Shown piece after piece: positions 9,637 through 49,572 of a stretch of DNA of 61,085 bases (position 1 is the stretch's first letter; each line of letters starts with the position of its first letter). The position numbers were made by a program, and so were the translations under genes. This DNA is from a virus. Its lineage: Duplodnaviria; Caudoviricetes. The notes beneath the pieces are model-generated. The model saw nothing but the letters and a program-made list of their open reading frames with translations, ran no database searches and was not told the DNA's origin. The stretch covers positions 1 through 61,085 of IMG/VR virus record IMGVR_UViG_3300036715_000569; one strand, given 5' to 3'.

Positions 9637-10641
9637 ATGTCACAACAAAAAAAGCTTGAAAAGGTTCTGGATTTGCTATTAAGCGAAGATTCCGACCAAG
9701 CCGCTGAACTTCTTCACCAAATCATTGTAGAAAAAGCTCGTACAATTTATGAAAGCATCGTTGATGAAGAAGATGACGCCGAAAATGAAAAAGATGAACT
9801 CGACGAATCCGATGAAGTTGGTGGCGAACCAAACAAAGACTTTACTGATGAAATTTCATCAGACGAAGACGAAGTAGATGCGGATGAAGAAAACGACGGC
9901 GAAGCAGGTGCTGAAGACGATGATGAAGAGGGTTATGATGATGAATTCGGCGGCGATGATGATGCTGGCGAAGGATCAACTGAAGACCGCGTTGAAGACC
10001 TGGAATCTCAACTAGCTGAACTTCGTGCAGAATTCGATGCCTTAATGGGCGAAGAAATGCAAGAACCTAATCATGCAGATTTAGGTGATAAGTTTGGTGG
10101 TGACGACGAAGTCGAGCCAGCTGGTGACGAATTTGATGGGGATGAAGGCGCTGGTATGCCTGATTTCGGTGGCGAAGGCGAAACTAAAGTTGTTGGCGAA
10201 GTTGTAGCAAGTATGTTTGAAAAAAGAAAGACAGCTAAACTTAAAGTAGCACCACAAAAGAAAGATTTAAAGAAAGATAAAAAAGTTGATGAAGAAACTA
10301 AGTTTCTGAACACAGTTGCTGATACTGGTCAAAAAGGAACAGCAAAATTGGTCGGAACAGGTAAGTCGACACCACTCGGTGCTGAACAAACTAAGTCTTC
10401 GTTTACAAACATTCCTCCACGTAAAGACTACGGTGGAAAACCAGCTAAGATCGGCGGCGGCCCAGCTGGCGAATACGGTAAATACAATGGTGACTGTGCT
10501 GCAAGCAAAACACCAACGGATAACGTAAACATTAAGCCGAAAAATTCCTCAATTAAAGCTGATACTACTGCTAAATTTACTGGTGGCAAGACAGCAGGCG
10601 AGGGCTTTACTAAATCCCCATTCACTAAGAAGCCGGGTTAA
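9637..10641 (+). CDS. Acidic prohead core/scaffold-associated protein
   Basis: Very D/E-rich; EDRVEDLESQLAELRAEF; between portal and protease. Confidence 0.7.
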   Translation: MSQQKKLEKVLDLLLSEDSDQAAELLHQIIVEKARTIYESIVDEEDDAENEKDELDESDEVGGEPNKDFTDEISSDEDEVDADEENDGEAGAEDDDEEGYDDEFGGDDDAGEGSTEDRVEDLESQLAELRAEFDALMGEEMQEPNHADLGDKFGGDDEVEPAGDEFDGDEGAGMPDFGGEGETKVVGEVVASMFEKRKTAKLKVAPQKKDLKKDKKVDEETKFLNTVADTGQKGTAKLVGTGKSTPLGAEQTKSSFTNIPPRKDYGGKPAKIGGGPAGEYGKYNGDCAASKTPTDNVNIKPKNSSIKADTTAKFTGGKTAGEGFTKSPFTKKPG

Positions 10642-10650
10642 GGATAGATA

Positions 10651-11289
10651 ATGGCTATGGCAAATAAACTGTACGAGTACTTGTCCTTTGACAAGGCACA
10701 CGTTCAACTTCTAGAAGAAGATAATAAACAAGGTGGTAAAGATCTTTGTATGAAAGGGATCTTTATTCAAGGTGACGTAAGGAACCAGAATCAGCGTGTT
10801 TATCCTGTTCGTGAAATTACCCGTGCCGTTAATTCTATTACTGAAAAGTTAAGTAGTGGTCAATCAGTTATGGGAGAGCTCGACCATCCGGAAGAGCTTT
10901 CAATTAACTTAGACCGCGTGGCTCATCTAATTACAGAAATGTGGATGGATGGTGCTGATGGATACGGTAAGTTGAAGATAGTCCCAACTCCGATGGGCAA
11001 CATTGTAAAGACATTGTTACAGTCGGGCGCAAAGTTAGGCGTATCTTCCCGTGGTTCTGGAAATGTAAATGACGATGGTACTGTTTCAGATTTTGAAATT
11101 ATTACTGTTGACATTGTTGCGCAACCAAGCGCACCAAACGCATTTCCTAGAACAATATATGAAAGTTTATTTAACATGAAGGGTGGTTCCCGAGTTATTG
11201 TTACCGCAAGGGAAGCATTAACAGAGGCATCTGCTCAAAGACAACTTGTTAAAGACCTTCAAAGATTTATTCAAGAGTTAAAAATTTAG
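10651..11289 (+). CDS. Prohead protease (T4 gp21-like)
   Basis: NQNQRVYP, GELDHP, GVSSRGSG, DIVAQPSAPNA. Confidence 0.95.
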   Translation: MAMANKLYEYLSFDKAHVQLLEEDNKQGGKDLCMKGIFIQGDVRNQNQRVYPVREITRAVNSITEKLSSGQSVMGELDHPEELSINLDRVAHLITEMWMDGADGYGKLKIVPTPMGNIVKTLLQSGAKLGVSSRGSGNVNDDGTVSDFEIITVDIVAQPSAPNAFPRTIYESLFNMKGGSRVIVTAREALTEASAQRQLVKDLQRFIQELKI

Positions 11290-11300
11290 GAGAACTCAAG

Positions 11301-12425
11301 ATGGCAAAAAAAATTGATGAACTCTTGAGCGAAAGCGTTGGACTATCCGAAGATACTAGAAACCAGATCGTTGGTTTGTGGGAATCTAGACTATCCGAAG
11401 CTCGTGAAGAAGTTGCTGCAACACTCCGCGAGGAATTTGCACGTAAGTTCGAACACGACAAGGGTGTGCTAGTTGAATCGATGGATCGTTTCTTAACTGA
11501 TAAAGTCCGCGTTGAACTCGAGGAATTCGCTGATGACAAGCGAAAACTTGTCGCAGAACGTATTGCCTACAAAGGTAAAATCGTTGAACACACAGGCATG
11601 TTGAACAAATTTGTAACAGAAGCTGTAGCAAAAGAGATGAAAGAATTCTATGCTGAAAAGAAAGCAATGAAGGAAAATTTTGGTAAACTAGAAAACTTCT
11701 TATTGAAACAACTTGCCGAAGAAATTCGTGAGTTCCGTTCAGATAAGAAATCTTTGGTAGAACAAAAAGTCAAAATGGTTACAGAAGGAAAACAAAAATT
11801 ACACGAAACAAAGACACAGTTTATTAAGCGCGCCGCTCAAATCATCGAGTCAAACATTGAAAGAACTTTACGTAATGAAATCGGTCAATTCAAGGAAGAC
11901 ATTCGTGTTGCCCGTGAAAACGATTTTGGTCGTAAGATTTTCGAAAGTGTGGCAGCTGAATTCATGACTTCATACCTTAACGAAGGTACAGAACTGAAAA
12001 AGCTTCAAAAAGTTGTCGAATCTAAAAATACAAAAATTGCTTCATTGACAGAATCTGTTAAGAAGAGCAGTGGACTTATGGAAAGATTAGACGGTAAATT
12101 GAAAGCAACTCAGGACTTGGTCGAAAGACAAAAAGTTATGAGTGAATTACTAGCACCATTGTCTAAGGACAAGAAGTCGGTAATGAAAGAATTACTTGAA
12201 TCGGTACAGACAAAGAATTTGCAAGGTCAATATAACAAATATTTGCCAAGCGTTCTAAATGAAGCTGTCGCATGTAAACCTGTTGCTGCAAGGCCACAGT
12301 TGAACGAAGCAACATTGTCATCCAATACAGGTAATAGAGTGAAGGTCACTCAGAATGAAGAGTCGGGTGATTCTTCGGAATTAAATCATATCTTGTCCTT
12401 AGCCGGCATTAGAAAAGTAAACTAG
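11301..12425 (+). CDS. Prohead scaffolding protein (T4 gp22-like)
   Basis: Coiled-coil, E/K-rich; between protease and capsid gene. Confidence 0.85.
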   Translation: MAKKIDELLSESVGLSEDTRNQIVGLWESRLSEAREEVAATLREEFARKFEHDKGVLVESMDRFLTDKVRVELEEFADDKRKLVAERIAYKGKIVEHTGMLNKFVTEAVAKEMKEFYAEKKAMKENFGKLENFLLKQLAEEIREFRSDKKSLVEQKVKMVTEGKQKLHETKTQFIKRAAQIIESNIERTLRNEIGQFKEDIRVARENDFGRKIFESVAAEFMTSYLNEGTELKKLQKVVESKNTKIASLTESVKKSSGLMERLDGKLKATQDLVERQKVMSELLAPLSKDKKSVMKELLESVQTKNLQGQYNKYLPSVLNEAVACKPVAARPQLNEATLSSNTGNRVKVTQNEESGDSSELNHILSLAGIRKVN

Positions 12426-41969: not shown

Positions 41970-41975
41970 AACAAT

Positions 41976-42050
41976 GGGGGCAGCAGTGGTTTGCGGATCA
42001 CACTTGCAATGTGATTGTCTAGTAGGATTCGATTTCCTCGGCCTCCACCA
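41976..42050 (+). tRNA. tRNA-Ala(TGC)
   Basis: tcaca-ctTGCaa-tgtga; G3:U70; CCA. Confidence 0.75.
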
Positions 42051-42058
42051 ATAACAAT

Positions 42059-42154
42059 GGAGTAATAGTTTAACGAAAAAACGGCGGCACCTATTGATTT
42101 ATTATCACCGGGAGGATCGCACTTAATAGGTTTAATTCCTATTTTACCCCACCA
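42059..42154 (+). tRNA. Degenerate tRNA-like element (anticodon unresolved)
   Basis: GGAGTAA/TTACCCC acceptor, T-arm and CCA present; no canonical anticodon arm. Confidence 0.4.
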
Positions 42155-42159
42155 AGTTT

Positions 42160-42228
42160 AAAGAATGCTTTCAGCAAACACACAAATTGAAAAACTTTTA
42201 ATCTTTCAAGATAAAAGCATTCTGTTTT
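42160..42228 (+). ncRNA. Scaffolded small RNA copy 1 (Lys-UUU anticodon-loop mimic)
   Basis: AGAATGCTTT/AAAGCATTCT stem, CAGCAA, internal ttgaaa-aaCTTTTAAtc-tttcaa. Confidence 0.55.
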
Positions 42229-42234
42229 AATTAA

Positions 42235-42309
42235 GCCTCGTTCGTATAACGGACATTACACTGGATTGTCGATCCAATTACAGCGGTTCAACTCCGCTAC
42301 GAGGCGCCA
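42235..42309 (+). tRNA. tRNA-Asp(GTC)
   Basis: tgga-ttGTCga-tcca; CCA. Confidence 0.85.
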
Positions 42310-42314
42310 TTTTT

Positions 42315-42374
42315 AAAGATTACCTACCGCATACAAAATTCACTCAAAATGAAACCATAAGCGTAATCTGTTTT
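42315..42374 (+). ncRNA. Scaffolded small RNA copy 2 (Leu-CAA anticodon-loop mimic)
   Basis: AGATTAC/GTAATCT stem, CCGCA, ttca-ctCAAaa-tgaa. Confidence 0.5.
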
Positions 42375-42381
42375 AGTTTTT

Positions 42382-42457
42382 GCCGGTGTAGCTCAGTGGT
42401 AGAGCACTTCCCTTGTAAGGAATAGGTCGACAGTTCAATTCTAGTCCATCGGCACCA
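42382..42457 (+). tRNA. tRNA-Thr(TGT)
   Basis: ttcc-ctTGTaa-ggaa; CCA. Confidence 0.85.
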
Positions 42458-42531
42458 AGTTTTTAATTTAGTATATGCTGATAAGGCGCCGTACAGGACA
42501 GACGGAACCCTACTAAGTTAAATTGTATTAT

Positions 42532-42607
42532 CTCTGTAAAGTGTTATCTGGTTGCATGTGCCGTTTGGGGCGGTATGGTGTAGGTTCAAATCCTACTACG
42601 GAGACCA
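42532..42607 (+). tRNA. tRNA-Pro(TGG)
   Basis: gccg-ttTGGgg-cggt; CCA. Confidence 0.8.
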
Positions 42608-42613
42608 AGTTTT

Positions 42614-42732
42614 AAAGGATCCATTCAGCATAACAACTACACTCTTAATGTCGTGGTCGCAGGTTCGAGTCCTGTTCACTGTGTAAACAGTGGTAGCTCA
42701 GTTGGTAGAGCACGTAAAACTGATCCTGATTT
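42614..42732 (+). ncRNA. Scaffolded small RNA copy 3, YrlA/Y-RNA-like with circularly permuted tRNA domain
   Basis: AGGATC/GATCCT stem, CAGCA; aca-ctCTTaa-tgt, T-arm caggTTCGAGTcctg, looped acceptor cactg-tgtaaa-cagtg, D-arm gctcAGTTGGTAgagc. Confidence 0.65.
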
Positions 42733-42785
42733 AATTTTAAAGTATAAAGTTCGGCAGTAAATCGAATTCACTACTTAGTAACAAT

Positions 42786-42859
42786 GCTTCTTTAGGTAAA
42801 TGGTATACCGGGATCTTGATAAGGTCTTATCGATGGTCCGATTCCATCAAGAAGCACCA
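42786..42859 (+). tRNA. tRNA-Ile(GAT)
   Basis: gatc-ttGATaa-ggtc; CCA. Confidence 0.8.
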
Positions 42860-42900
42860 GTAATCAAATATATTTGTCGGGTTCGACGATAAATACTATT

Positions 42901-43704
42901 ATGATAAACTGTCCTAAATGCAACATCTTATTTGATGAACAAGGCAAATGGGGTATTAAACAATTTTGTTCCAGATCCTGTGCAAATAGTCGCGGTCCGC
43001 GATCACAAGCAGTTAAAGATGCGATATCTGCAACATTATCCGGCACGGTCGGTCACACTAATATATATAAAGGATGTGAATTAGTCGAAAGAGAAGATCG
43101 TTTCTGCAAAGAATGTTCTAAAACTTTTAGGATTCTTCCATCTTCGTCACAGATATATTGTTCTAAAGAGTGTCGAACACCACACATAGGCGGATATAGG
43201 CAAGGGTCTGGTAGATCGAAATCCGGATATTATAAAGGAATATATTGTGGATCGACATATGAACTTGCGTGGGTTATATACAGATTAGATCACAATTTAT
43301 CTGTTAAAAGATTTGATGGTTACATTTTATATGGCGATAATAAAAAATATTATCCCGATTTTATTGATAATAATTGTGTTATTGAGATAAAAGGTTGGAC
43401 AACAACTGATACTGATATAATTATAGAACAAAAAATGTTAGCATCGAGTCTAGCAGGTTACAAAGTTATTTTACTGAAAAAAGAAGATTTACAGAAAGAA
43501 TTTTGCTGGATAATAGAGAAATATAATACAAATAAGGTATATACACTATATGATGAATATAGTCCAGTTTTTAACTATGTATGTAATCACTGTAATACAG
43601 AATTTGGCAGAAATCATCGGATAAAAACAGAAAATAAATTTTGTAGCAGGGTTTGCGCAGGATTAAATAATAAAGGTAAGAAGATACAAACTAATATTTC
43701 GTGA
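42901..43704 (+). CDS. Zinc-finger plus PD-(D/E)xK free-standing endonuclease inside the tRNA array
   Basis: FCSRSCAN and YCSKEC fingers; GSTYEL; YYPDF..IEIKGW. Confidence 0.75.
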   Translation: MINCPKCNILFDEQGKWGIKQFCSRSCANSRGPRSQAVKDAISATLSGTVGHTNIYKGCELVEREDRFCKECSKTFRILPSSSQIYCSKECRTPHIGGYRQGSGRSKSGYYKGIYCGSTYELAWVIYRLDHNLSVKRFDGYILYGDNKKYYPDFIDNNCVIEIKGWTTTDTDIIIEQKMLASSLAGYKVILLKKEDLQKEFCWIIEKYNTNKVYTLYDEYSPVFNYVCNHCNTEFGRNHRIKTENKFCSRVCAGLNNKGKKIQTNIS

Positions 43705-43780
43705 TGACGGCTGGTAACTGTCAGTGCCCTTTCAAGGCACCGCTCGTGTAGCTGGGGTTCGATTCCCCCACGAAATACCA
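43696..43780 (+). tRNA. tRNA-Glu(TTC), atypical long variable region
   Basis: gtgcc-ctTTCaa-ggcac; ATTTCGT/ACGAAAT acceptor; CCA. Confidence 0.7.
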
Positions 43781-43789
43781 ATTTTTTTA

Positions 43790-43865
43790 GGGTTCGTAAC
43801 TCAGATGATTAGAGTCCTGCCTCTTAAGCAGAGAGACCCCGGTTTGAATCCGGGCGAACCCACCA
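43790..43865 (+). tRNA. tRNA-Lys(CTT)
   Basis: ctgc-ctCTTaa-gcag; CCA. Confidence 0.85.
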
Positions 43866-43943
43866 ATCATTGTGCTATATGTAGTCACTATGTTATGCTA
43901 TGTATGATGCACCAGGTAGATAGTAGTTTAAAAGGAGTTTATT

Positions 43944-44111
43944 ATGAGAATGAATGACACAAACGATGATGAGAATACAGGTACAGGTACAGGCGCTGAT
44001 ACACCGGTGGGAGCAGATCCATTTACTCCGGTCGATGATAGTCACGCAAATACACGTTATGTAATAATTGCTATAGCTGTATTAGTAATTATTGCTCTTA
44101 TTATATTGTAA
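43944..44111 (+). CDS. Small membrane protein
   Basis: AAGGAG RBS; acidic N-terminus; C-terminal VIIAIAVLVIIALIIL helix. Confidence 0.6.
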   Translation: MRMNDTNDDENTGTGTGADTPVGADPFTPVDDSHANTRYVIIAIAVLVIIALIIL

Positions 44112-44205
44112 GATACAAAAGATAGGTGAGCTAACCTTGTACATGTAAGCTTGCCCGTAAGTCGCGGAGGCCCGACACCGCGTTATAAAATCAGGCGTGA
44201 ACAAT

Positions 44206-44277
44206 GCGGGTTGTTTGTGGAATACGTTTAGCCTTCCAAGCTGAAAGATGCAGGTTCGAACCCTGTAGCCCGCTCCA
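44206..44277 (+). tRNA. tRNA-Gly(TCC)
   Basis: tagc-ctTCCaa-gctg; U73-CCA. Confidence 0.8.
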
Positions 44278-44292
44278 TATCGAAAGTAAACT

Positions 44293-44585
44293 ATGTTTAA
44301 TTTTTTTAAAAAAGAAAATGGGCGTTAGTAAAGAGTTTTAAAGCAACTTTAAATTATGCAGATTATTACATTCATTTATTTGAATCTGAAACAGGTAGTC
44401 GTAAAGCTGAATATATCAAAAATGGTAGTAAGCATCAATTATCTGATTTAAGAACTTTAGAATCATCCGACTTGTATCAATTAAAGGTATATCGATGGTT
44501 GCAAGGTCGAAGGGATCCAGATATCCCGATGTATAGTCAGATAGGTGAAGACGATACAGCAAATTTTTTGAAAGGTAGTATATAG
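44293..44585 (+). pseudogene. Hypothetical gene split by a frameshift at a T7A6 homopolymer tract
   Basis: ATG frame stops after MFNFFKKENGR; -1 frame continues 88 codons from 44319 (WALVKSF...LKGSI). Confidence 0.5.
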
Positions 44586-44599
44586 TAAATAGTTTCTAT

Positions 44600-44678
44600 T
44601 CCGTAGAATTCGAGCATGGTGCACGGACTTGCCTGTTAAGCAATGACTAGTTGGGATCGTTACCCAAATACGGAGCCA
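44600..44678 (+). tRNA. tRNA-Asn(GTT)
   Basis: ttgc-ctGTTaa-gcaa; G73-CCA; atypical T loop. Confidence 0.75.
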
Positions 44679-44705
44679 TAATAATGTAGTAAATAGTTTT
44701 ACAAT

Positions 44706-44779
44706 AGGTCAGTAGTGTAATGGTAGCACACGACACTCCAAACGTCTTAGCGAGGGTTCGATTCCTTCCTGATCTGCCA
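44706..44779 (+). tRNA. tRNA-Trp(CCA)
   Basis: ctCCAaa loop; G73-CCA. Confidence 0.8.
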
Positions 44780-44785
44780 AGTTTT

Positions 44786-44863
44786 GCCAGTATAGCTCCA
44801 ATCGCGTAGAGCAGCAGCCTGAAAAGTTGTGTGTTGTCAGTTCGAGTCTGACTACTGGCACCA
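44786..44863 (+). tRNA. tRNA-Phe(GAA)
   Basis: cagc-ctGAAaa-gttg; CCA. Confidence 0.85.
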
Positions 44864-44877
44864 AAATTTAGAAGTAA

Positions 44878-44905
44878 TTGACATATATGCTAAATAGTGT
44901 ATAAT
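44878..44905 (+). promoter_or_regulatory. sigma70-type internal promoter
   Basis: TTGACA...TATAAT. Confidence 0.65.
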
Positions 44906-45050
44906 TACTGTATTAAGAAGTATTTGCAACAGACGCCACAGCTACCGTCGCTACAATGGCAAGACGGAACTGTTGCAGTAAAATGGTAGTAATCTACAAG
45001 GTCTTGTGCTAAAGTCGTCCGAAGAGTAATGTCGAGGGTGCAATAACAGA

Positions 45051-45127
45051 CGCGGTGTGGAGCAGTGGTCAGCTCGCAAGTCTCATAAGCTTGAGGTCGG
45101 TGGTTCGAATCCACCCATTCGCAACCA
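45051..45127 (+). tRNA. Initiator tRNA-fMet(CAT)
   Basis: CGCGG start with C1:A72 mismatch; ctCATaa loop. Confidence 0.85.
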
Positions 45128-45421
45128 ATTTAGTAATAAGATATATTAGAAGAGGCTAACGAATGCCGATCCCTATCTTATTACTATACAGCTTTGAATC
45201 TGATATACCCCGGAGGCGTGAGCCGCATTTGAACGAACGGGTTCCTATACTAACAGATTCGATCATATTTTTATGTAGTAGCGTAACCAGGAAGCGTGTC
45301 GAACTAGGTAGTTCGAATGTGGGGTTCAAATCCTCCTATCTCTAAAATATGTTTTACAGTTTGAGCATACTATTATCGTTAGACCGGTAACAACGGGAGA
45401 GGTTAGTCACTGCTTAGAAAT

Positions 45422-45498
45422 GCCCCGATGACGGAATTGGTATACGTGTTTGCCTTAGAAGCAAAATCCTGCGAGTTCGAGTCTCGCTTGGGGCACCA
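45422..45498 (+). tRNA. tRNA-Leu(TAG), short variable loop
   Basis: tttgc-ctTAGaa-gcaaa; CCA. Confidence 0.85.
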
Positions 45499-45504
45499 AG
45501 TTTT

Positions 45505-45595
45505 AAAGAATAGTTGCAGCAAACAAACTGGCGGGAAACCGCTGCCAGACTGTTTAGGTAGGTCGCAAAACAATACCTTAAAAACTATTCTGTTT
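45505..45595 (+). ncRNA. Scaffolded small RNA copy 4
   Basis: AGAATAGTT/AACTATTCT stem, CAGCAAAC, internal hairpins. Confidence 0.55.
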
Positions 45596-45602
45596 CGATT
45601 TT

Positions 45603-45719
45603 AAAGCATGATTGCAGCAAACAAACTTATTCCAACCAGCCGCAAGGCACTCTGGAGGCTAGCCCGATGGGGGCAGATGACGTGGGTTCGATTCCCGGCA
45701 AGTCACAACATGCTGTTTT
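45603..45719 (+). ncRNA. Scaffolded small RNA copy 5 (contains T-arm)
   Basis: AGCATG/CATGCT stem, CAGCAAAC, gggTTCGATTccc. Confidence 0.55.
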
Positions 45720-45728
45720 AGTTTCGAT

Positions 45729-45803
45729 GTGGTTAGTGTTGTAATGGTAGCAACCAATCTTGTGACGATTGTAGCGCGGGTTCGATTCCCGTCTTTCCAC
45801 CCA
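45729..45803 (+). tRNA. tRNA-His(GTG)
   Basis: caatc-ttGTGac-gattg; C73-CCA. Confidence 0.75.
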
Positions 45804-45826
45804 ATTTATATAAATACTGTTATAGT

Positions 45827-46012
45827 ATGGAGAGTATTATGCAAAACATAAATGAATTAACATATACTAAAACTGAAGCAGAAGTATGTGCATTTCTGGA
45901 TGAACAAGCTCAGCGAATGAAAAAAAATAGAGCAGAGGTACAGTCCGCACTAATTATGCTTAAAGCAGAATTAAAAGAGAAACAAGGTGCGGATAGACGA
46001 AATAACAAATAG
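45827..46012 (+). CDS. Hypothetical protein
   Basis: ORF downstream of TATAAATA late-promoter motif. Confidence 0.5.
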   Translation: MESIMQNINELTYTKTEAEVCAFLDEQAQRMKKNRAEVQSALIMLKAELKEKQGADRRNNK

Positions 46013-46286
46013 TAATATTTTGTGGGGAAAATTAAAAGGTGCTAATTTTGATACTATACAAGATTATTCAAATATAGTTACTTTGTTAAAAACTTTGACA
46101 CAATTAAACAGTCACTATAGAGTTACTATTTACATGCAAACAATTTTAGATTTTGAAAGCATATTAACTAATTTTATAAACAATGATTACGGTAATTATC
46201 CTAGTTCGCAAGATATGAATAGGTTTAATAATAAATGTAAAAAGATGCTATCAAACATACAATATCTTAAATCTAAATTGCCATGA
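45987..46286 (+). CDS. Hypothetical protein (MRIDEI N-terminus)
   Basis: GTG-start ORF coupled to neighbours. Confidence 0.5.
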   Translation: MRIDEITNSNILWGKLKGANFDTIQDYSNIVTLLKTLTQLNSHYRVTIYMQTILDFESILTNFINNDYGNYPSSQDMNRFNNKCKKMLSNIQYLKSKLP

Positions 46287-46489
46287 TAAAACTTTTTATT
46301 ATTGTTTTTATATTACTGTCCTCGGGTTGTTCGACCTTTGAAGTAATGAAAAAGAATGGTAAAGTTTACATTACAACAGATGTCTTACCGCCCATAACAA
46401 ACGATAAAGGATATGGTGCTGATCCTGGCACACATCATCGAATTATGATAAACGGTAAGATAGAATATAGAATTATTCACACTTTTTAA
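46283..46489 (+). CDS. Putative small lipoprotein
   Basis: Hydrophobic signal and LSSGC lipobox. Confidence 0.55.
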   Translation: MIKLFIIVFILLSSGCSTFEVMKKNGKVYITTDVLPPITNDKGYGADPGTHHRIMINGKIEYRIIHTF

Positions 46490-46490
46490 T

Positions 46491-46566
46491 GGACCGTTGG
46501 CCGAGATGATCAAGGCGCTAGTCTGCAAAACTGGCTATGGTGGATTGTGACCACCACGGTTCTCCA
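46491..46566 (+). tRNA. tRNA-Cys(GCA)
   Basis: ctagt-ctGCAaa-actgg; U73-CCA; atypical T loop. Confidence 0.75.
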
Positions 46567-46615
46567 AACAATGCCAGGTAAACACATACATCTGTATGTG
46601 CTGGCCCCTAACATT

Positions 46616-46692
46616 GCCCACGTAGGCCAATCGGCAGAGTCTACAGTCTCAAACACTGCAAAGTATCGGTTCGAATCCGATCGTGGGTACCA
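46616..46692 (+). tRNA. tRNA-Leu(CAA), short variable loop
   Basis: cagt-ctCAAac-actg; CCA. Confidence 0.8.
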
Positions 46693-46844
46693 TAAACAAA
46701 TATTTACTGATTTTAGTTGACAGCAGTAGCAGTATAATGTATAATTACACTTCGGGCCGCTAAATGCCACGCAAACTAAGAATTTGCAGCAGACTTACAT
46801 CAGGGTCGCGCCCTGAGCGGTCCACCGAACACATAAAGGATAAT

Positions 46845-47045
46845 ATGGCACGTATAACATCAGAAAAAGCAGCAAATATGATCGGCAATAAGTTTGATAT
46901 GATACTAATTGCATCGATTCGTGCTAAAGAATTAAAAAAGGGTCATTTAGCTAAAGTAGTATGCGATAATGGTCCTACAGTAACAGCTATTCGTGAAATT
47001 GAAGAAGGATTCATTGGTCGCGAGTATTTAAATAAGATAAAGTAA
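46845..47045 (+). CDS. rpoZ: RNA polymerase omega subunit homolog
   Basis: MARIT..NKFDMILIASIRAKEL..PTVTAIREIEEG matches the omega pattern; AAGGA RBS. Confidence 0.85.
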   Translation: MARITSEKAANMIGNKFDMILIASIRAKELKKGHLAKVVCDNGPTVTAIREIEEGFIGREYLNKIK

Positions 47046-47053
47046 CAAATAAT

Positions 47054-47128
47054 GCCCGATTAGCTCAGAGGAAGAGCAACACTCTTACAAAGTGAAGGTC
47101 GACGTTTCGAAATCGTCATTGGGTACCA
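47054..47128 (+). tRNA. tRNA-Val(TAC)
   Basis: cact-ctTACaa-agtg; CCA. Confidence 0.85.
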
Positions 47129-47136
47129 AGTAATAC

Positions 47137-47222
47137 GGAAGATGATTTGCACAGGGTGCAACACTGTTTTGAAAGCAGCTGGACTCGAAAGGGTTTGGGT
47201 TCGATACCTACTTCTTCCACCA
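47137..47222 (+). tRNA. tRNA-Ser(TGA)
   Basis: ctgt-ttTGAaa-gcag; long variable arm. Confidence 0.75.
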
Positions 47223-47226
47223 ATAT

Positions 47227-47301
47227 GCGGGCTTAATTCAGCGGTAGAATACCTGGTTGCCAATCAGATTGTCGTGAGTTCGATCCTCACAGTCCGCTCC
47301 A
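47227..47301 (+). tRNA. tRNA-Gly(GCC)
   Basis: ttGCCaa loop; GCG..CGC U CCA. Confidence 0.85.
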
Positions 47302-47307
47302 AGTTTT

Positions 47308-47371
47308 AAAGGATTCTTTCAGCAACTTAAAATTTTAAATTGGTTTTAAAAGACAAAAGGTATCCTGTTTT
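47308..47371 (+). ncRNA. Scaffolded small RNA copy 6
   Basis: AGGAT/ATCCT stem, CAGCAA, ttttaaa/tttaaaa hairpin, CTGTTTT end. Confidence 0.5.
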
Positions 47372-47373
47372 AT

Positions 47374-47449
47374 CGTCTAATGGCAGAGAGGCAAGAGCGC
47401 AATCCTCATAAGATTGAATACAGTGGTTCGAATCCACTTTAGACGACCA
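47374..47449 (+). tRNA. tRNA(CAT), elongator Met or Ile2
   Basis: caatc-ctCATaa-gattg; CCA. Confidence 0.75.
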
Positions 47450-47456
47450 ATAATAA

Positions 47457-47529
47457 CTGCCGTCCAACGGACTTGGTGGCGAGCCTTCGAAGCTTGCTTA
47501 CGGTGATTCGACTTCATCACGGCGGACCA
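47457..47529 (+). tRNA. tRNA-Arg(TCG)
   Basis: gagc-ctTCGaa-gctt; CCA. Confidence 0.7.
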
Positions 47530-47548
47530 GATTAACAGGGAGTAACAA

Positions 47549-47803
47549 ATGAACTATGATATTAAGAGTATGGTAAGAGATGGTAAGAAAGTCACTTTCT
47601 TATTTTACAAACAAAATGAATTATGGTATAAAACAGAATGCGGCTTTGCATTTCCTGTACCGATCAACGATACGGGCGATGGCGTTTTCTTAAGTGAAGA
47701 TAAAGCGATGTTGTTCATGCGTTATATAAGAAAAGAAATTGAAGTAATTAAAGCAGCAAAAATAGAACAATCCTCTGATACAACTGAGTTTGCGCAAACT
47801 TAG
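47549..47803 (+). CDS. Hypothetical phage protein
   Basis: GGGAG RBS; FAFPVPINDTGDGVF..DKAMLFMRYIRK. Confidence 0.7.
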   Translation: MNYDIKSMVRDGKKVTFLFYKQNELWYKTECGFAFPVPINDTGDGVFLSEDKAMLFMRYIRKEIEVIKAAKIEQSSDTTEFAQT

Positions 47804-47854
47804 TGAATAGTGGCAAATGTGTATATCGACATACACTCAGAGGGCCAGTACAGT

Positions 47855-47928
47855 TGGGATATAGTGAAATGATATCACGCGGGATTTTGAATCCTTAGTT
47901 CTTGGTTTGATCCCAAGTATCCCTGCCA
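47855..47928 (+). tRNA. tRNA-Gln(TTG)
   Basis: ggga-ttTTGaa-tcct; G73-CCA. Confidence 0.8.
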
Positions 47929-47942
47929 GTAACAAAGAATAT

Positions 47943-48033
47943 GGAATGCGGGCCGTGCGGTAAAGGCGACACCCTGCTAAGGTGCAAGTTCATGAAAATG
48001 GGCTGCAGAGTTCGACTCTCTGGCATTCCGCCA
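47943..48033 (+). tRNA. tRNA-Ser(GCT)
   Basis: cacc-ctGCTaa-ggtg; long variable arm. Confidence 0.85.
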
Positions 48034-48039
48034 AATAAT

Positions 48040-48115
48040 CCCTGTATAGCTCAATGTTAGTAGCAATCCCCTTTTAAGGGATAGGTTCGGTGTTCAAGTC
48101 ACCGTGCAGGGACCA
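48040..48115 (+). tRNA. tRNA-Lys(TTT)
   Basis: atccc-ctTTTaa-gggat; CCA. Confidence 0.8.
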
Positions 48116-48944
48116 GTAATTTTAATAAATCCGAAATTTTAACTCCATTTTTGTATTCGTCATATGAAATACGGAATATAGTATTTTTGGTATTAGTGGT
48201 AATATATTCGTCACGCAATATGTCGGCAGCTATATGTTTTGGTACAAGATGTTGCTTCCCATCTAATTCGACTATTAAGTTTAGTTTAGGGAAATAGAAA
48301 TCAACAAAATACCATCTGTTAGTGATGTGGTTTCTTATACTATGCTCTGGTATAAAATCTGTGATATTATGTAAACTTAGCCATTGTTCGAATGATTCTT
48401 CCATGTATGATCGTTTATCTCTACGAAAATTACTTCGCTTATTTAAAATAATTCGTTCAGTAATATTATTAGATAATAACACAGATTTACATGTAGCAGA
48501 ACAAGTTTTTATATATTTATTTTTAATTAGATTATTACAGATAACACAAAATGATATCTTGCAATATTTTTGACAACCTTTATTCCATGGTATCTGCCCG
48601 GTCTTAGCAAGTATGCGTGATTGTTGTTTTTCGGGTGACATCATTTTGTTACTGTAATATCCACTACACGACTGCGAACAGAATTTATTGTGCCTGATTT
48701 CGTAATCTAAATTAGTTTGGCAATATTGACATTGATTAGGCGAAGTATTATACTGTGTTATGTTATTTAATTTTTGTTTAATCTGATATGCACCACCTAA
48801 ATGTGCTGATTCTTGTAATTGTTTAGTGTTCTGTTGTTTGCCGTCAGTTGTATGTGATATAAGGTAGTGTGTAAATATACCTTTAGCAGACTTAATTTCT
48901 CTACAGTGTATACAAGAAACTAATGGTGATTTATATGTGGTCAT
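48099..48944 (-). CDS. Zinc-finger plus DUF559/Vsr-like endonuclease (homing-type)
   Basis: FCSQSC; YFVDFYFPKLNLIVELDGKQH..DILRD. Confidence 0.75.
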   Translation of the reverse strand: MTTYKSPLVSCIHCREIKSAKGIFTHYLISHTTDGKQQNTKQLQESAHLGGAYQIKQKLNNITQYNTSPNQCQYCQTNLDYEIRHNKFCSQSCSGYYSNKMMSPEKQQSRILAKTGQIPWNKGCQKYCKISFCVICNNLIKNKYIKTCSATCKSVLLSNNITERIILNKRSNFRRDKRSYMEESFEQWLSLHNITDFIPEHSIRNHITNRWYFVDFYFPKLNLIVELDGKQHLVPKHIAADILRDEYITTNTKNTIFRISYDEYKNGVKISDLLKLLVPAR

Positions 48945-49011
48945 ATATGTATTTATACTACCATCGACGATAACACCGAATTTAAAGAGCCCTACCATAC
49001 AAAGGAAATAT

Positions 49012-49260
49012 ATGTCTTATAGAAAATTAGTAATTAACGAAAAAACATACGAATATGTTATTGGTAAATCCCATACAAGGATTAAGGGTATCGGAGTTTT
49101 TTTAAATAACGATATTGGGTCTAGATATGATATTTTGTGTGAATGTTGCGGAACTCCTTTGTCGGAACTTTATAATGATTTGACAGCGACAGAAAACAGA
49201 GTAACACCGTCGGATATAAAGACTATGATATTAAAAACTATAAGTCCTGTAACATATTAA
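49012..49260 (+). CDS. Hypothetical protein
   Basis: AAGGA RBS; MSYRKLVINEKTYEYVIGK..CECCG. Confidence 0.6.
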   Translation: MSYRKLVINEKTYEYVIGKSHTRIKGIGVFLNNDIGSRYDILCECCGTPLSELYNDLTATENRVTPSDIKTMILKTISPVTY

Positions 49261-49371
49261 AATGCACTGTATGTAAAACAATGCCTAAATTGATACGGAC
49301 GGCACTGATCACGCTGAAATAATCGATTTCGCCTCTAGCAATTACAGTGTATTTTAATATGTAGTATCAAT

Positions 49372-49449
49372 GCCCCTGTAGCCCAATTGGTAGCAGGTAA
49401 CAAGTTTAAGCCTTGTCGAGTGTCGGTTCGAATCCGTCCAGGGGTACCA
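49372..49449 (+). tRNA. tRNA-Leu(TAA), short variable loop
   Basis: acaag-ttTAAgc-cttgt; CCA. Confidence 0.8.
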
Positions 49450-49454
49450 TTTTT

Positions 49455-49566
49455 AAAGAATGTTTACAGCAACACCATCTTAAAGCCAAACCGCGTGACA
49501 GGGTTCGATTCCCTGCTTGTAGTGTATCGGTAGCACAGCGGTCAAAAAAGAAATACATTCTGTTTT
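49455..49566 (+). ncRNA. Scaffolded small RNA copy 7, YrlA-like (T-arm then D-arm)
   Basis: AGAATGT/ACATTCT stem, CAGCAA; accgc/gcggt encloses cagggTTCGATTccctg and gtgtATCGGTAgcac. Confidence 0.6.
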
Positions 49567-49572
49567 ATCTGT

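Follow-up and report, generated by a model that had tools for sequence, protein, structure and literature searches.

The question raised by this locus is what occupies the gaps between the transfer RNA (tRNA) genes of a phage. The stretch of DNA analysed here (the window) is a complete IMG/VR virus record of 61,085 bases (IMGVR_UViG_3300036715_000569), about 16% complete and with 38% G+C. Its products include a T4-type portal (Pfam Portal_T4, 1.6e-106), a gp15-like protein and, as major capsid protein, Gp23 (1.4e-94), and the window is thus, judged by its genes, a fragment of a T4-like jumbo phage. ARAGORN places 23 of the window's 24 tRNAs in a plus-strand array at 41.8-49.8 kb, and seven short elements that share one structural frame lie within this array. 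A first-pass annotation of the sequence had proposed that they are Y-RNA-like small RNAs whose scaffold carries interchangeable tRNA parts. From sequence comparison, protein modelling and analogy, we find it probable that a divergent phage Ro-like protein has the elements as its Y-RNA-like partners and that their cargo of tRNA parts is swappable.

Each of the seven elements is composed of UUUAAAG, one strand of a helix, 0-4 nt, C(A/C)GCA, a cargo, the other helix strand and CUG(U/A)UU. The pattern TTTAAAG-N10-GCA matches the window seven times, always on the plus strand (at 42157, 42312, 42611, 45502, 45600, 47305 and 49452), against a chance expectation of 0.25 (standard deviation 0.48, largest value 2); none of 100 shuffled sequences reached seven. 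Across the record there are seven forward matches and no reverse match, and a backwards control pattern gave one and none. On folding, the closing helix encloses the inner cargo in all seven copies. The 5′ strands of the helices of copies 1 to 7 are AGAAUGCUUU, AGAUUAC, AGGAUC, AGAAUAGUU, AGCAUG, AGGAU and AGAAUGU, so that the sequence varies among copies while pairing is kept, and every copy ends with CUG and U-rich sequence. The recurrent plus-strand frame and the variable, yet paired, closing stem with its CTG and T-rich tail were thereby borne out. The stem length of 5-10 bp given in the first-pass annotation holds if the stem is counted from the conserved AG/CU pairs; the linker, described there as A/C-rich, is A-rich more than A/C-rich.

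Placement relative to the tRNAs also agrees with what had been read from the sequence. Five copies lie directly 3′ of tRNAs called by ARAGORN (Asp, Pro, Leu-UAG, Gly-GCC and Leu-UAA), copy 1 comes after a CCA-ending tRNA-like stretch, and copy 5 follows copy 4. Two such CCA-ending stretches, at 41975-42050 and 42058-42154, are called by neither ARAGORN nor Rfam, and the second directly precedes copy 1. The gap from an element to the next tRNA is usually 2-9 nt, and therefore ordinary tRNA end-processing would be expected to free the elements as separate RNAs. ARAGORN and Rfam RF00005 call a tRNA cloverleaf in none of the seven copies, and only partial matches to the tRNA model (13-16 bits) fall inside copy 3.

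In our effort to find a protein partner for these elements, 13 relative loci were gathered via the S8 peptidase gene located downstream of the tRNA array. The two closest relatives, L008 and L009 (46-50% identity), carry the same frame, consisting of an AG-helix, at most 4 nt, CAGCA, cargo and a helix ending in CUGUU. In L009 a framed copy built like window copy 3 follows tRNA-Gly, a homolog (10561-10815) of an omega-like gene present in the window is directly followed by two framed elements, and a framed copy ends 15 nt upstream of an open reading frame (ORF) of 471 amino acids. The product of this ORF matches Pfam DUF7788 (2.8e-49) and DUF2828 (2.2e-26). An ADP-ribosylglycohydrolase gene (L009 12143-12976; Pfam 4.4e-29) is located between framed elements and the 471-amino-acid ORF.

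An AlphaFold2 model of the 471-amino-acid protein, built with 18 homologs, has a predicted local distance difference test score (pLDDT) of 76 and a predicted template-modelling score (pTM) of 0.70. When this model was compared with the PDB by Foldseek, the 12 best-ranked matches listed were all Ro60/TROVE proteins aligned over the full length (E-values 3e-9 to 2e-4), among them the Ro60 of Thermus phage phiLo, Rsr of D. radiodurans, and Xenopus and human Ro60. The tool counted 13 PDB matches at E <= 0.001, and the ranks below were isolated vWA domains. The DUF2828+DUF7788 protein is thus predicted to be Ro60-shaped over its full length. Searches with tblastn found a DUF2828-type protein in 711 phage records, including Felix O1-like, KVP40-like, Listeria, Staphylococcus, Campylobacter and mycobacterial phages, and in some of these records it is annotated as 'Ro-like RNA binding protein'.

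The linkage between the RNA frame and this protein gene was then measured over a larger sample. A protein search confirmed 104 relatives in IMG/VR, and the best 80 loci were kept, which provided 56 distinct upstream regions. A framed element ends no more than 40 nt from the start codon in 47 of these 56 regions, and six further regions carry one within 300 nt. For the 40-nt test, the reverse complement gave 0/56 and segments taken from within genes gave 24/224. Loose descriptors of the frame proved unspecific: a first one gave 26 plus-strand matches in the window, mostly within ORFs, and a different one also matched 24 of 56 control stretches within genes. We therefore relied on position, on controls for strand and shuffling, and on a covariance model. 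Among 35 aligned leader elements, the closing helix is paired in 97.9% of cells (25-53% in slid controls), compensatory changes occur in five of its eight pairs, and none of 500 shuffles reaches the observed covariation score. The first-pass annotation had named covariation and co-occurrence with Ro60 as checks; the helix of the leader elements covaries, and the protein that co-occurs in relatives is a DUF2828 protein of predicted Ro60 shape.

A covariance model, termed R1, was built from the same 35 leader elements, none of which comes from the window, and the whole window was scanned with filters off. The top three matches are framed copies: copy 6 (41.8 bits, E 1e-6, aligned over its full length), copy 1 (29.0 bits, E 6.5e-4) and copy 2 (27.1 bits, E 1.7e-3), followed by a next match of 15.2 bits. 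In the whole records of five relatives, two of which are 97-100% complete, all 18 R1 matches share the strand of the Ro-like gene, at most about 20 kb upstream of it. The regions examined in four of these relatives hold arrays of 24-41 tRNAs with the Ro-like gene at the downstream end. Five more distant relatives also have tRNA arrays in the loci examined. The protein is encoded by one of them alone, G008, and the sole R1 match among the five is also in G008, about 580 nt upstream of the Ro-like gene on the same strand; the other four, with 8-18 tRNAs in these loci, have neither elements nor a Ro-like gene. RNA and protein are thus both confined to G008 among these five relatives, and therefore the elements are not a general feature of phage tRNA arrays.

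The same association is found in named phages of diverse hosts. In the Felix O1-like E. coli phage wV8, four elements (L106 6716-6781, 6882-6939, 7278-7345 and 7365-7490) lie beside the gene at the head of an array of 22 tRNAs, and the Ro-like gene and first elements are kept in 251 Felix O1-like records. Cyanophage BUCT-ZZ01 has three elements directly upstream of its Ro-like gene and one more about 6.4 kb upstream, Listeria phage LMTA-148 has three and Campylobacter phage NCTC12673 two directly upstream, and Vibrio phage Va3 has a single element about 6.1 kb upstream. In mycobacteriophage Whirlwind, three elements, one with a full tRNA-like module, are located directly downstream of the gene, with one tRNA nearby. 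DUF2828 and DUF7788 both occur in the proteins of wV8, Whirlwind and the Listeria phage. R1 detects elements next to the gene in the E. coli, cyanobacterial, mycobacterial and Listeria phages, and scores the best named-phage elements at 30-35 bits.

Other features of these loci were recorded alongside the elements. BUCT-ZZ01 carries a permuted transfer-messenger RNA (tmRNA) about 4 kb upstream of the Ro-like gene (L108 3780-4076). In LMTA-148, a ROOL-like RNA (L111 6469-7020; 90 bits, threshold 99.1) immediately precedes the three framed elements and the Ro-like gene, and RtcB and a gene annotated 'tRNA-splicing ligase' follow 1.3 kb downstream of the Ro-like gene (10852-12062). Small hypothetical ORFs annotated over framed elements or tRNAs, namely wV8 gene 48 (L106 7332-7589) and Sf19 gp24 (L115 2173-2301), are probably not genes.

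Several observations weigh against a Ro/Y-RNA interpretation of the elements. The proposed link between RNA and protein is one of adjacency and co-occurrence in sequences; three of the 56 upstream regions lack a framed element within 300 nt, and phage Aeh1 and Yersinia phage fHe-Yen9-03 carry the gene with no element within 5-6 kb on each side. The fold model is moderately confident, with a template-modelling score of about 0.5, protein and profile sequence searches against PDB chains returned no Ro60, and alignment by hhalign to the TROVE protein of phage CcrColossus covered the vWA part only (probability 54%). Pfam TROVE has no match in the records of three relatives. The long-cargo copies 3, 4, 5 and 7 are not significant with R1, as is to be expected of a short-loop model; they were assigned by descriptor and by eye, and all four satisfy the arrangement AG-helix, 0-4 nt, C(A/C)GCA, helix-CU. 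The invariance of the CAGCA core in the wider set of elements is partly by construction, as this core was a criterion of the descriptor search. Finally, searches of the 61-kb window for TROVE, RtcB and a DUF2828-type Ro-like gene found none, as the first-pass annotation had stated for Ro60 and RtcB. As the window is a fragment of about 16%, this lack of a Ro-like gene is uninformative, and for this phage the link to the protein is indirect.

Some conserved characteristics were not imposed by the search. In a consensus set of 52 elements from 12 records, the CAGCA core is followed by A in 44 elements, and 48 have G right after the helix, followed by U-rich sequence. The usual short cargo is a stem of 4-6 bp with a 7-nt loop. 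On free folding, position 2 of the loop is U in nine of nine 7-nt loops, and five phages share the exact loop CUUUUAA, each on a different stem. Ten long elements contain T arms with ten different paired stems, and in five of the ten a closed acceptor-like hairpin and a D arm follow the T arm. The arms of tRNA-like elements were checked directly; a MAFFT alignment of six elements (A3), in which the wV8 5′ end is mis-registered, was unused for counts. Four Ounavirinae from three genera keep the four elements in synteny and their frame nearly invariant, and the acceptor-like stems of the cargo show compensatory changes.

Taken as a whole, the observations are best explained, and we hold this with moderate confidence, by small RNAs that are cotranscribed with tRNAs and that combine a Ro60-like binding module with a cargo of tRNA parts. 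The seven elements would be small non-coding RNAs derived from the transcripts of the tRNAs; given their nearness to tRNA ends, they would be cut free as nucleases trim the adjacent tRNAs. The terminal AG...CU helix and the single-stranded CAGCAA on its 5′ side form a putative site for the phage DUF2828+DUF7788 Ro60-like ring protein, an assignment based on conserved gene adjacency and on analogy with the GNCGAA site of Y RNAs. The inner module, which varies, would present a look-alike of an anticodon stem-loop, a permuted mimic made of T arm, acceptor hairpin and D arm, or another fold. Speculatively, such cargo may engage tRNA-recognising proteins, for instance exoribonucleases, repair enzymes or defence nucleases that cleave tRNAs; a role as decoy or guide, or in tRNA repair, is a speculation that fits the conserved anticodon-loop-like cargo and the presence of RtcB near the Listeria locus. 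In other phages, where one copy borders directly on the ribosome-binding site of the Ro-like gene, that copy may permit translational autoregulation. We have also considered a more elaborate proposal, which we think unlikely, that phages across bacterial phyla carry a modular ribonucleoprotein in which a DUF2828 ring holds scaffold RNAs displaying different tRNA parts, either the anticodon arm of one tRNA (such as the Lys-UUU loop shared by five phages) or an entire tRNA-shaped domain, as baits for host immune nucleases that cleave tRNAs or for hand-over of cut tRNAs to repair ligases, in a manner tuned to the defences of the host.

An explanation that dispenses with free trans-acting RNAs is that the elements are cis landing sites, on the tRNA precursor and on the Ro-like mRNA, for the Ro-like protein or a host nuclease, and serve in tRNA checking, folding, processing or self-repression. 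The elements are indeed always on the tRNA strand, within or at the end of arrays, and 47 of the 56 loci have their copy beside the ribosome-binding site. Eukaryotic Ro60 checks misfolded small RNAs, which is also in keeping with such a function. However, a landing site has no need of conserved and covarying cargo, the three elements of Whirlwind lie downstream of the gene with a single tRNA nearby, and processing of tRNAs on both flanks in the window would free the elements anyway. We assign the cis explanation a low probability.

Less probable still is the possibility that the elements are passive processing spacers or decayed tRNA remnants that guide trimming by RNase E, RNase P or exonucleases and have no protein partner. 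Their position between tRNAs, the U-rich flanks and the tRNA pieces in some of them would suit such spacers, but the four related contigs with tRNA arrays and no Ro-like gene lack elements in the loci examined, and none is present in the T4 cluster. Moreover, CAGCAA and the helix are kept in phages of proteobacteria, actinobacteria and firmicutes, where they invariably adjoin a single protein family, and compensatory changes have accumulated in both helix and cargo, which argues against remnants or spacers. Finally, multiple copies, conserved flanks and the homing-endonuclease-like ORFs of the region might bring to mind miniature mobile repeats that insert beside tRNA genes. We regard this as very improbable: the paired ends differ among copies, which the inverted repeats of one element would not do, every copy points the same way, the four Ounavirinae copies are syntenic across three genera, and the cargo is wholly different from copy to copy. 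The preferred reading remains that of Y-RNA-like partners of the Ro-like protein.

The conserved RNA frame beside the gene provides candidate ligands for the DUF2828-type Ro-like protein. The frame also lets annotators label blank gaps in phage tRNA arrays, some of which lie under doubtful small ORFs, and supplies testable constructs for laboratory phage-host pairs. Should the cargo truly mimic specific anticodon arms, it would represent a new kind of counter-defence against tRNA-cleaving immunity.

The individual copies in the window illustrate the range of cargo, all on the plus strand. Copy 1 (42157..42229) has a helix formed by 42162-42171 and 42214-42223, the core CAGCAA at 42172-42177, and a hairpin (42187-42209) whose loop CUUUUAA (42195-42201) is the same as the anticodon loop of tRNA-Lys(UUU). 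In copy 2 (42312..42375; helix 42317-42323 with 42363-42369; core CCGCAU at 42327-42332) the hairpin at 42339-42353, UUCA-CUCAAAA-UGAA, has the loop CUCAAAA. Copy 3 (42611..42733; helix 42616-42621 with 42722-42727; core CAGCAU at 42626-42631) has a CUCUUAA hairpin followed by a T arm, a closed acceptor-like hairpin and a D arm (42652-42714), and has look-alikes in relatives at L009 310-424, L102 13390-13505 and L104 6349-6460.

Copy 4 (45502..45597; helix 45507-45515 with 45583-45591; core CAGCAA at 45517-45522) contains two inner hairpins that are not tRNA-like. Copy 5 (45600..45720; helix 45605-45610 with 45709-45714; core CAGCAA at 45615-45620) has a T arm at 45683-45699 and resembles L103 14519-14624. 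Copy 6 (47305..47372) has a helix from 47310 that pairs with a strand ending at 47366, the core CAGCAA at 47320-47325 and an AU-rich hairpin; it is the window copy nearest to the Ro-like gene leader elements of other phages. Copy 7 (49452..49567; helix 49457-49463 with 49555-49561; core CAGCAA at 49467-49472) carries a T arm (49499-49515) and a D-like hairpin (about 49522-49536). Its stem, GAAUGU/ACAUUC, is the most frequent among leader elements, and its look-alike in a relative is L009 3580-3690. The cargo of anticodon-like stem-loops or T/D arms noted in the first-pass annotation is therefore present in copies 1, 2, 3, 5 and 7, and copies 4 and 6 have other hairpins.

Other features of the window were also noted. 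Likely homing endonucleases interrupt the tRNA array (ORFs 42874-43704, plus strand, and 48099-48998, minus strand, the second with a DUF559 match, 3.3e-6), and the omega-like ORF, resembling the RNA polymerase subunit, is within the array at 46845-47045 (Pfam RNA_pol_Rpb6, 1.3e-9). A promoter and terminator scan of the window gave results not above those of shuffled sequences; two perfect sigma-70 consensus sites are present on the plus strand at 44878-44905 and 46717-46745. Outside the main array are a permuted tmRNA of the two-piece type (57474-57809; Rfam RF04321, 107 bits) and a tRNA with anticodon CUA (58808-58881), which ARAGORN labels 'Pyl' and which resembles an amber suppressor. A stretch of about 420 nt without an ORF (60407-60828), with G+C above its surroundings, is possibly another structured RNA and has no match in Rfam at the gathering threshold. 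The ORF at 60829-61083, which runs off the window end, was considered as a Ro-like gene and rejected.

Small stable RNAs encoded among phage tRNAs have precedents. RNAs C and D (species 1 and 2) of T4 belong to a tRNA cluster, their ends abut tRNA genes, and the 3′ part of RNA C is T-arm-like. In contrast to the elements described here, they lack the AG-helix/CAGCAA frame: the best R1 match in the T4 tRNA locus has an E-value of 0.61, and the 5.5 kb examined contains no annotated Ro-like gene. By blastn, the array of the window shares only tRNA-sized similarities with named phages. Our literature search returned no RNAs with the CAGCAA frame and no RNA partner of DUF2828 proteins; subscription journals and one supplement of Chen et al. 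may hold data.

A closer parallel is provided by Bas63, a Felix O1-like phage whose Ro60-like protein gp130 is encoded directly upstream of tRNA genes and is reported to counter the Ppl defence (10.1101/2024.10.10.617714). This PhageMaP preprint, which identifies no RNA partner of gp130, speculates that some neighbouring 'tRNAs' may be Y RNAs. Likened by layout alone, wV8 gene 47 has the same arrangement together with four framed elements.

Tandem Y-like RNAs with tRNA-like modules are also located directly upstream of a phage Ro gene in two systems described previously. Thermus phage phiLo has two CGAA-type Y-like RNAs (Yrl1/Yrl2) upstream of its Ro60 (PMC12135203), and CcrColossus has three putative YrlAs (Chen et al., 2014, Table S2, PMC4201824). 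CcrColossus, Bacillus phage G and 20 cluster-C1 mycobacteriophages make up the 22 YrlA phages of that study. The CcrColossus system differs from ours, as gp139 is a true Pfam TROVE protein (1.2e-17), the RNAs upstream of it use a GGUGGCGUAG...CUUCG frame, and R1 has no match at E <= 10 in this TROVE/Y-RNA locus. About seven tandem units beginning with GGUGGCGUAG are present on the minus strand upstream of the TROVE gene (L113 3000-4110), compared with three in the 2014 table, and the canonical TROVE/YrlA system thus also seems to be multi-copy with varied cargo in this phage.

In Y RNAs generally, Ro60 contacts a 5′ motif of the terminal stem; these RNAs also have a tRNA-like module and adjoin the Ro60 gene (PMC4201824, PMC12135203). 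For YrlA in particular, the definition of Chen et al. (2014, PMC4201824) calls for a nearby TROVE gene, a tRNA-like module and, close to the 5′ end, the motif GNCGAAN0-1G. The Rfam search for YrlA (RF02553) that had been suggested for the seven copies stayed below threshold. Its best match is copy 3 (36.8 bits, gathering threshold 69; model positions 24-84 of 114), where it spans the tRNA-like module (42652-42714) but leaves out the Ro60-binding stem; nothing in the remaining six copies is matched at E <= 10, and Rfam offers no family for the frame beyond this partial match, either at gathering thresholds or at E <= 10. GNCGAAN0-1G occurs in none of the seven 5′ parts, which have C(A/C)GCA(A/U) instead. 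The YrlA-type module is full in copy 3, reduced to the T arm in copy 5 and to the T arm with a D-like hairpin in copy 7, and absent from copies 1, 2, 4 and 6. No TROVE gene lies on the same strand within about 4 kb, since neither the window nor the records of three relatives have a TROVE match; the neighbour in relatives is DUF2828+DUF7788. Linkage to a protein of predicted Ro60 fold is seen in relatives and in six named phage lineages, and not in the window with its 16% of a genome.

Differences from YrlA among the elements at large are of the same kind. Their motif is CAGCAA and not GNCGAAN0-1G, Rfam YrlA scores of 33-38 bits concern the tRNA-like part only, and Pfam TROVE does not detect the neighbouring DUF2828+DUF7788 protein. 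Many elements carry an anticodon-arm-like hairpin alone or unrelated folds, and copies are scattered through tRNA arrays. There are likenesses to YrlA and Ro60 as well. The 5′ and 3′ ends form a terminal helix with a short conserved motif, single-stranded and on the 5′ side, that may be contacted by protein; in some elements the T arm, closed acceptor hairpin and D arm follow one another in the permuted order of YrlA; and in relatives they adjoin, on the same strand, the gene of a protein predicted to be a ring of Ro60 fold. It is through these relatives, where frame and gene lie side by side and co-occur, that the proposal of a Y-RNA-like scaffold with interchangeable cargo is upheld, but not as a part of YrlA. 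By the motifs and domains compared here, the seven elements fall outside the YrlA family and would be a counterpart of the TROVE/GNCGAA system. They suggest that the Ro/Y-RNA system has a further, undescribed branch, tied to phage tRNA biology.

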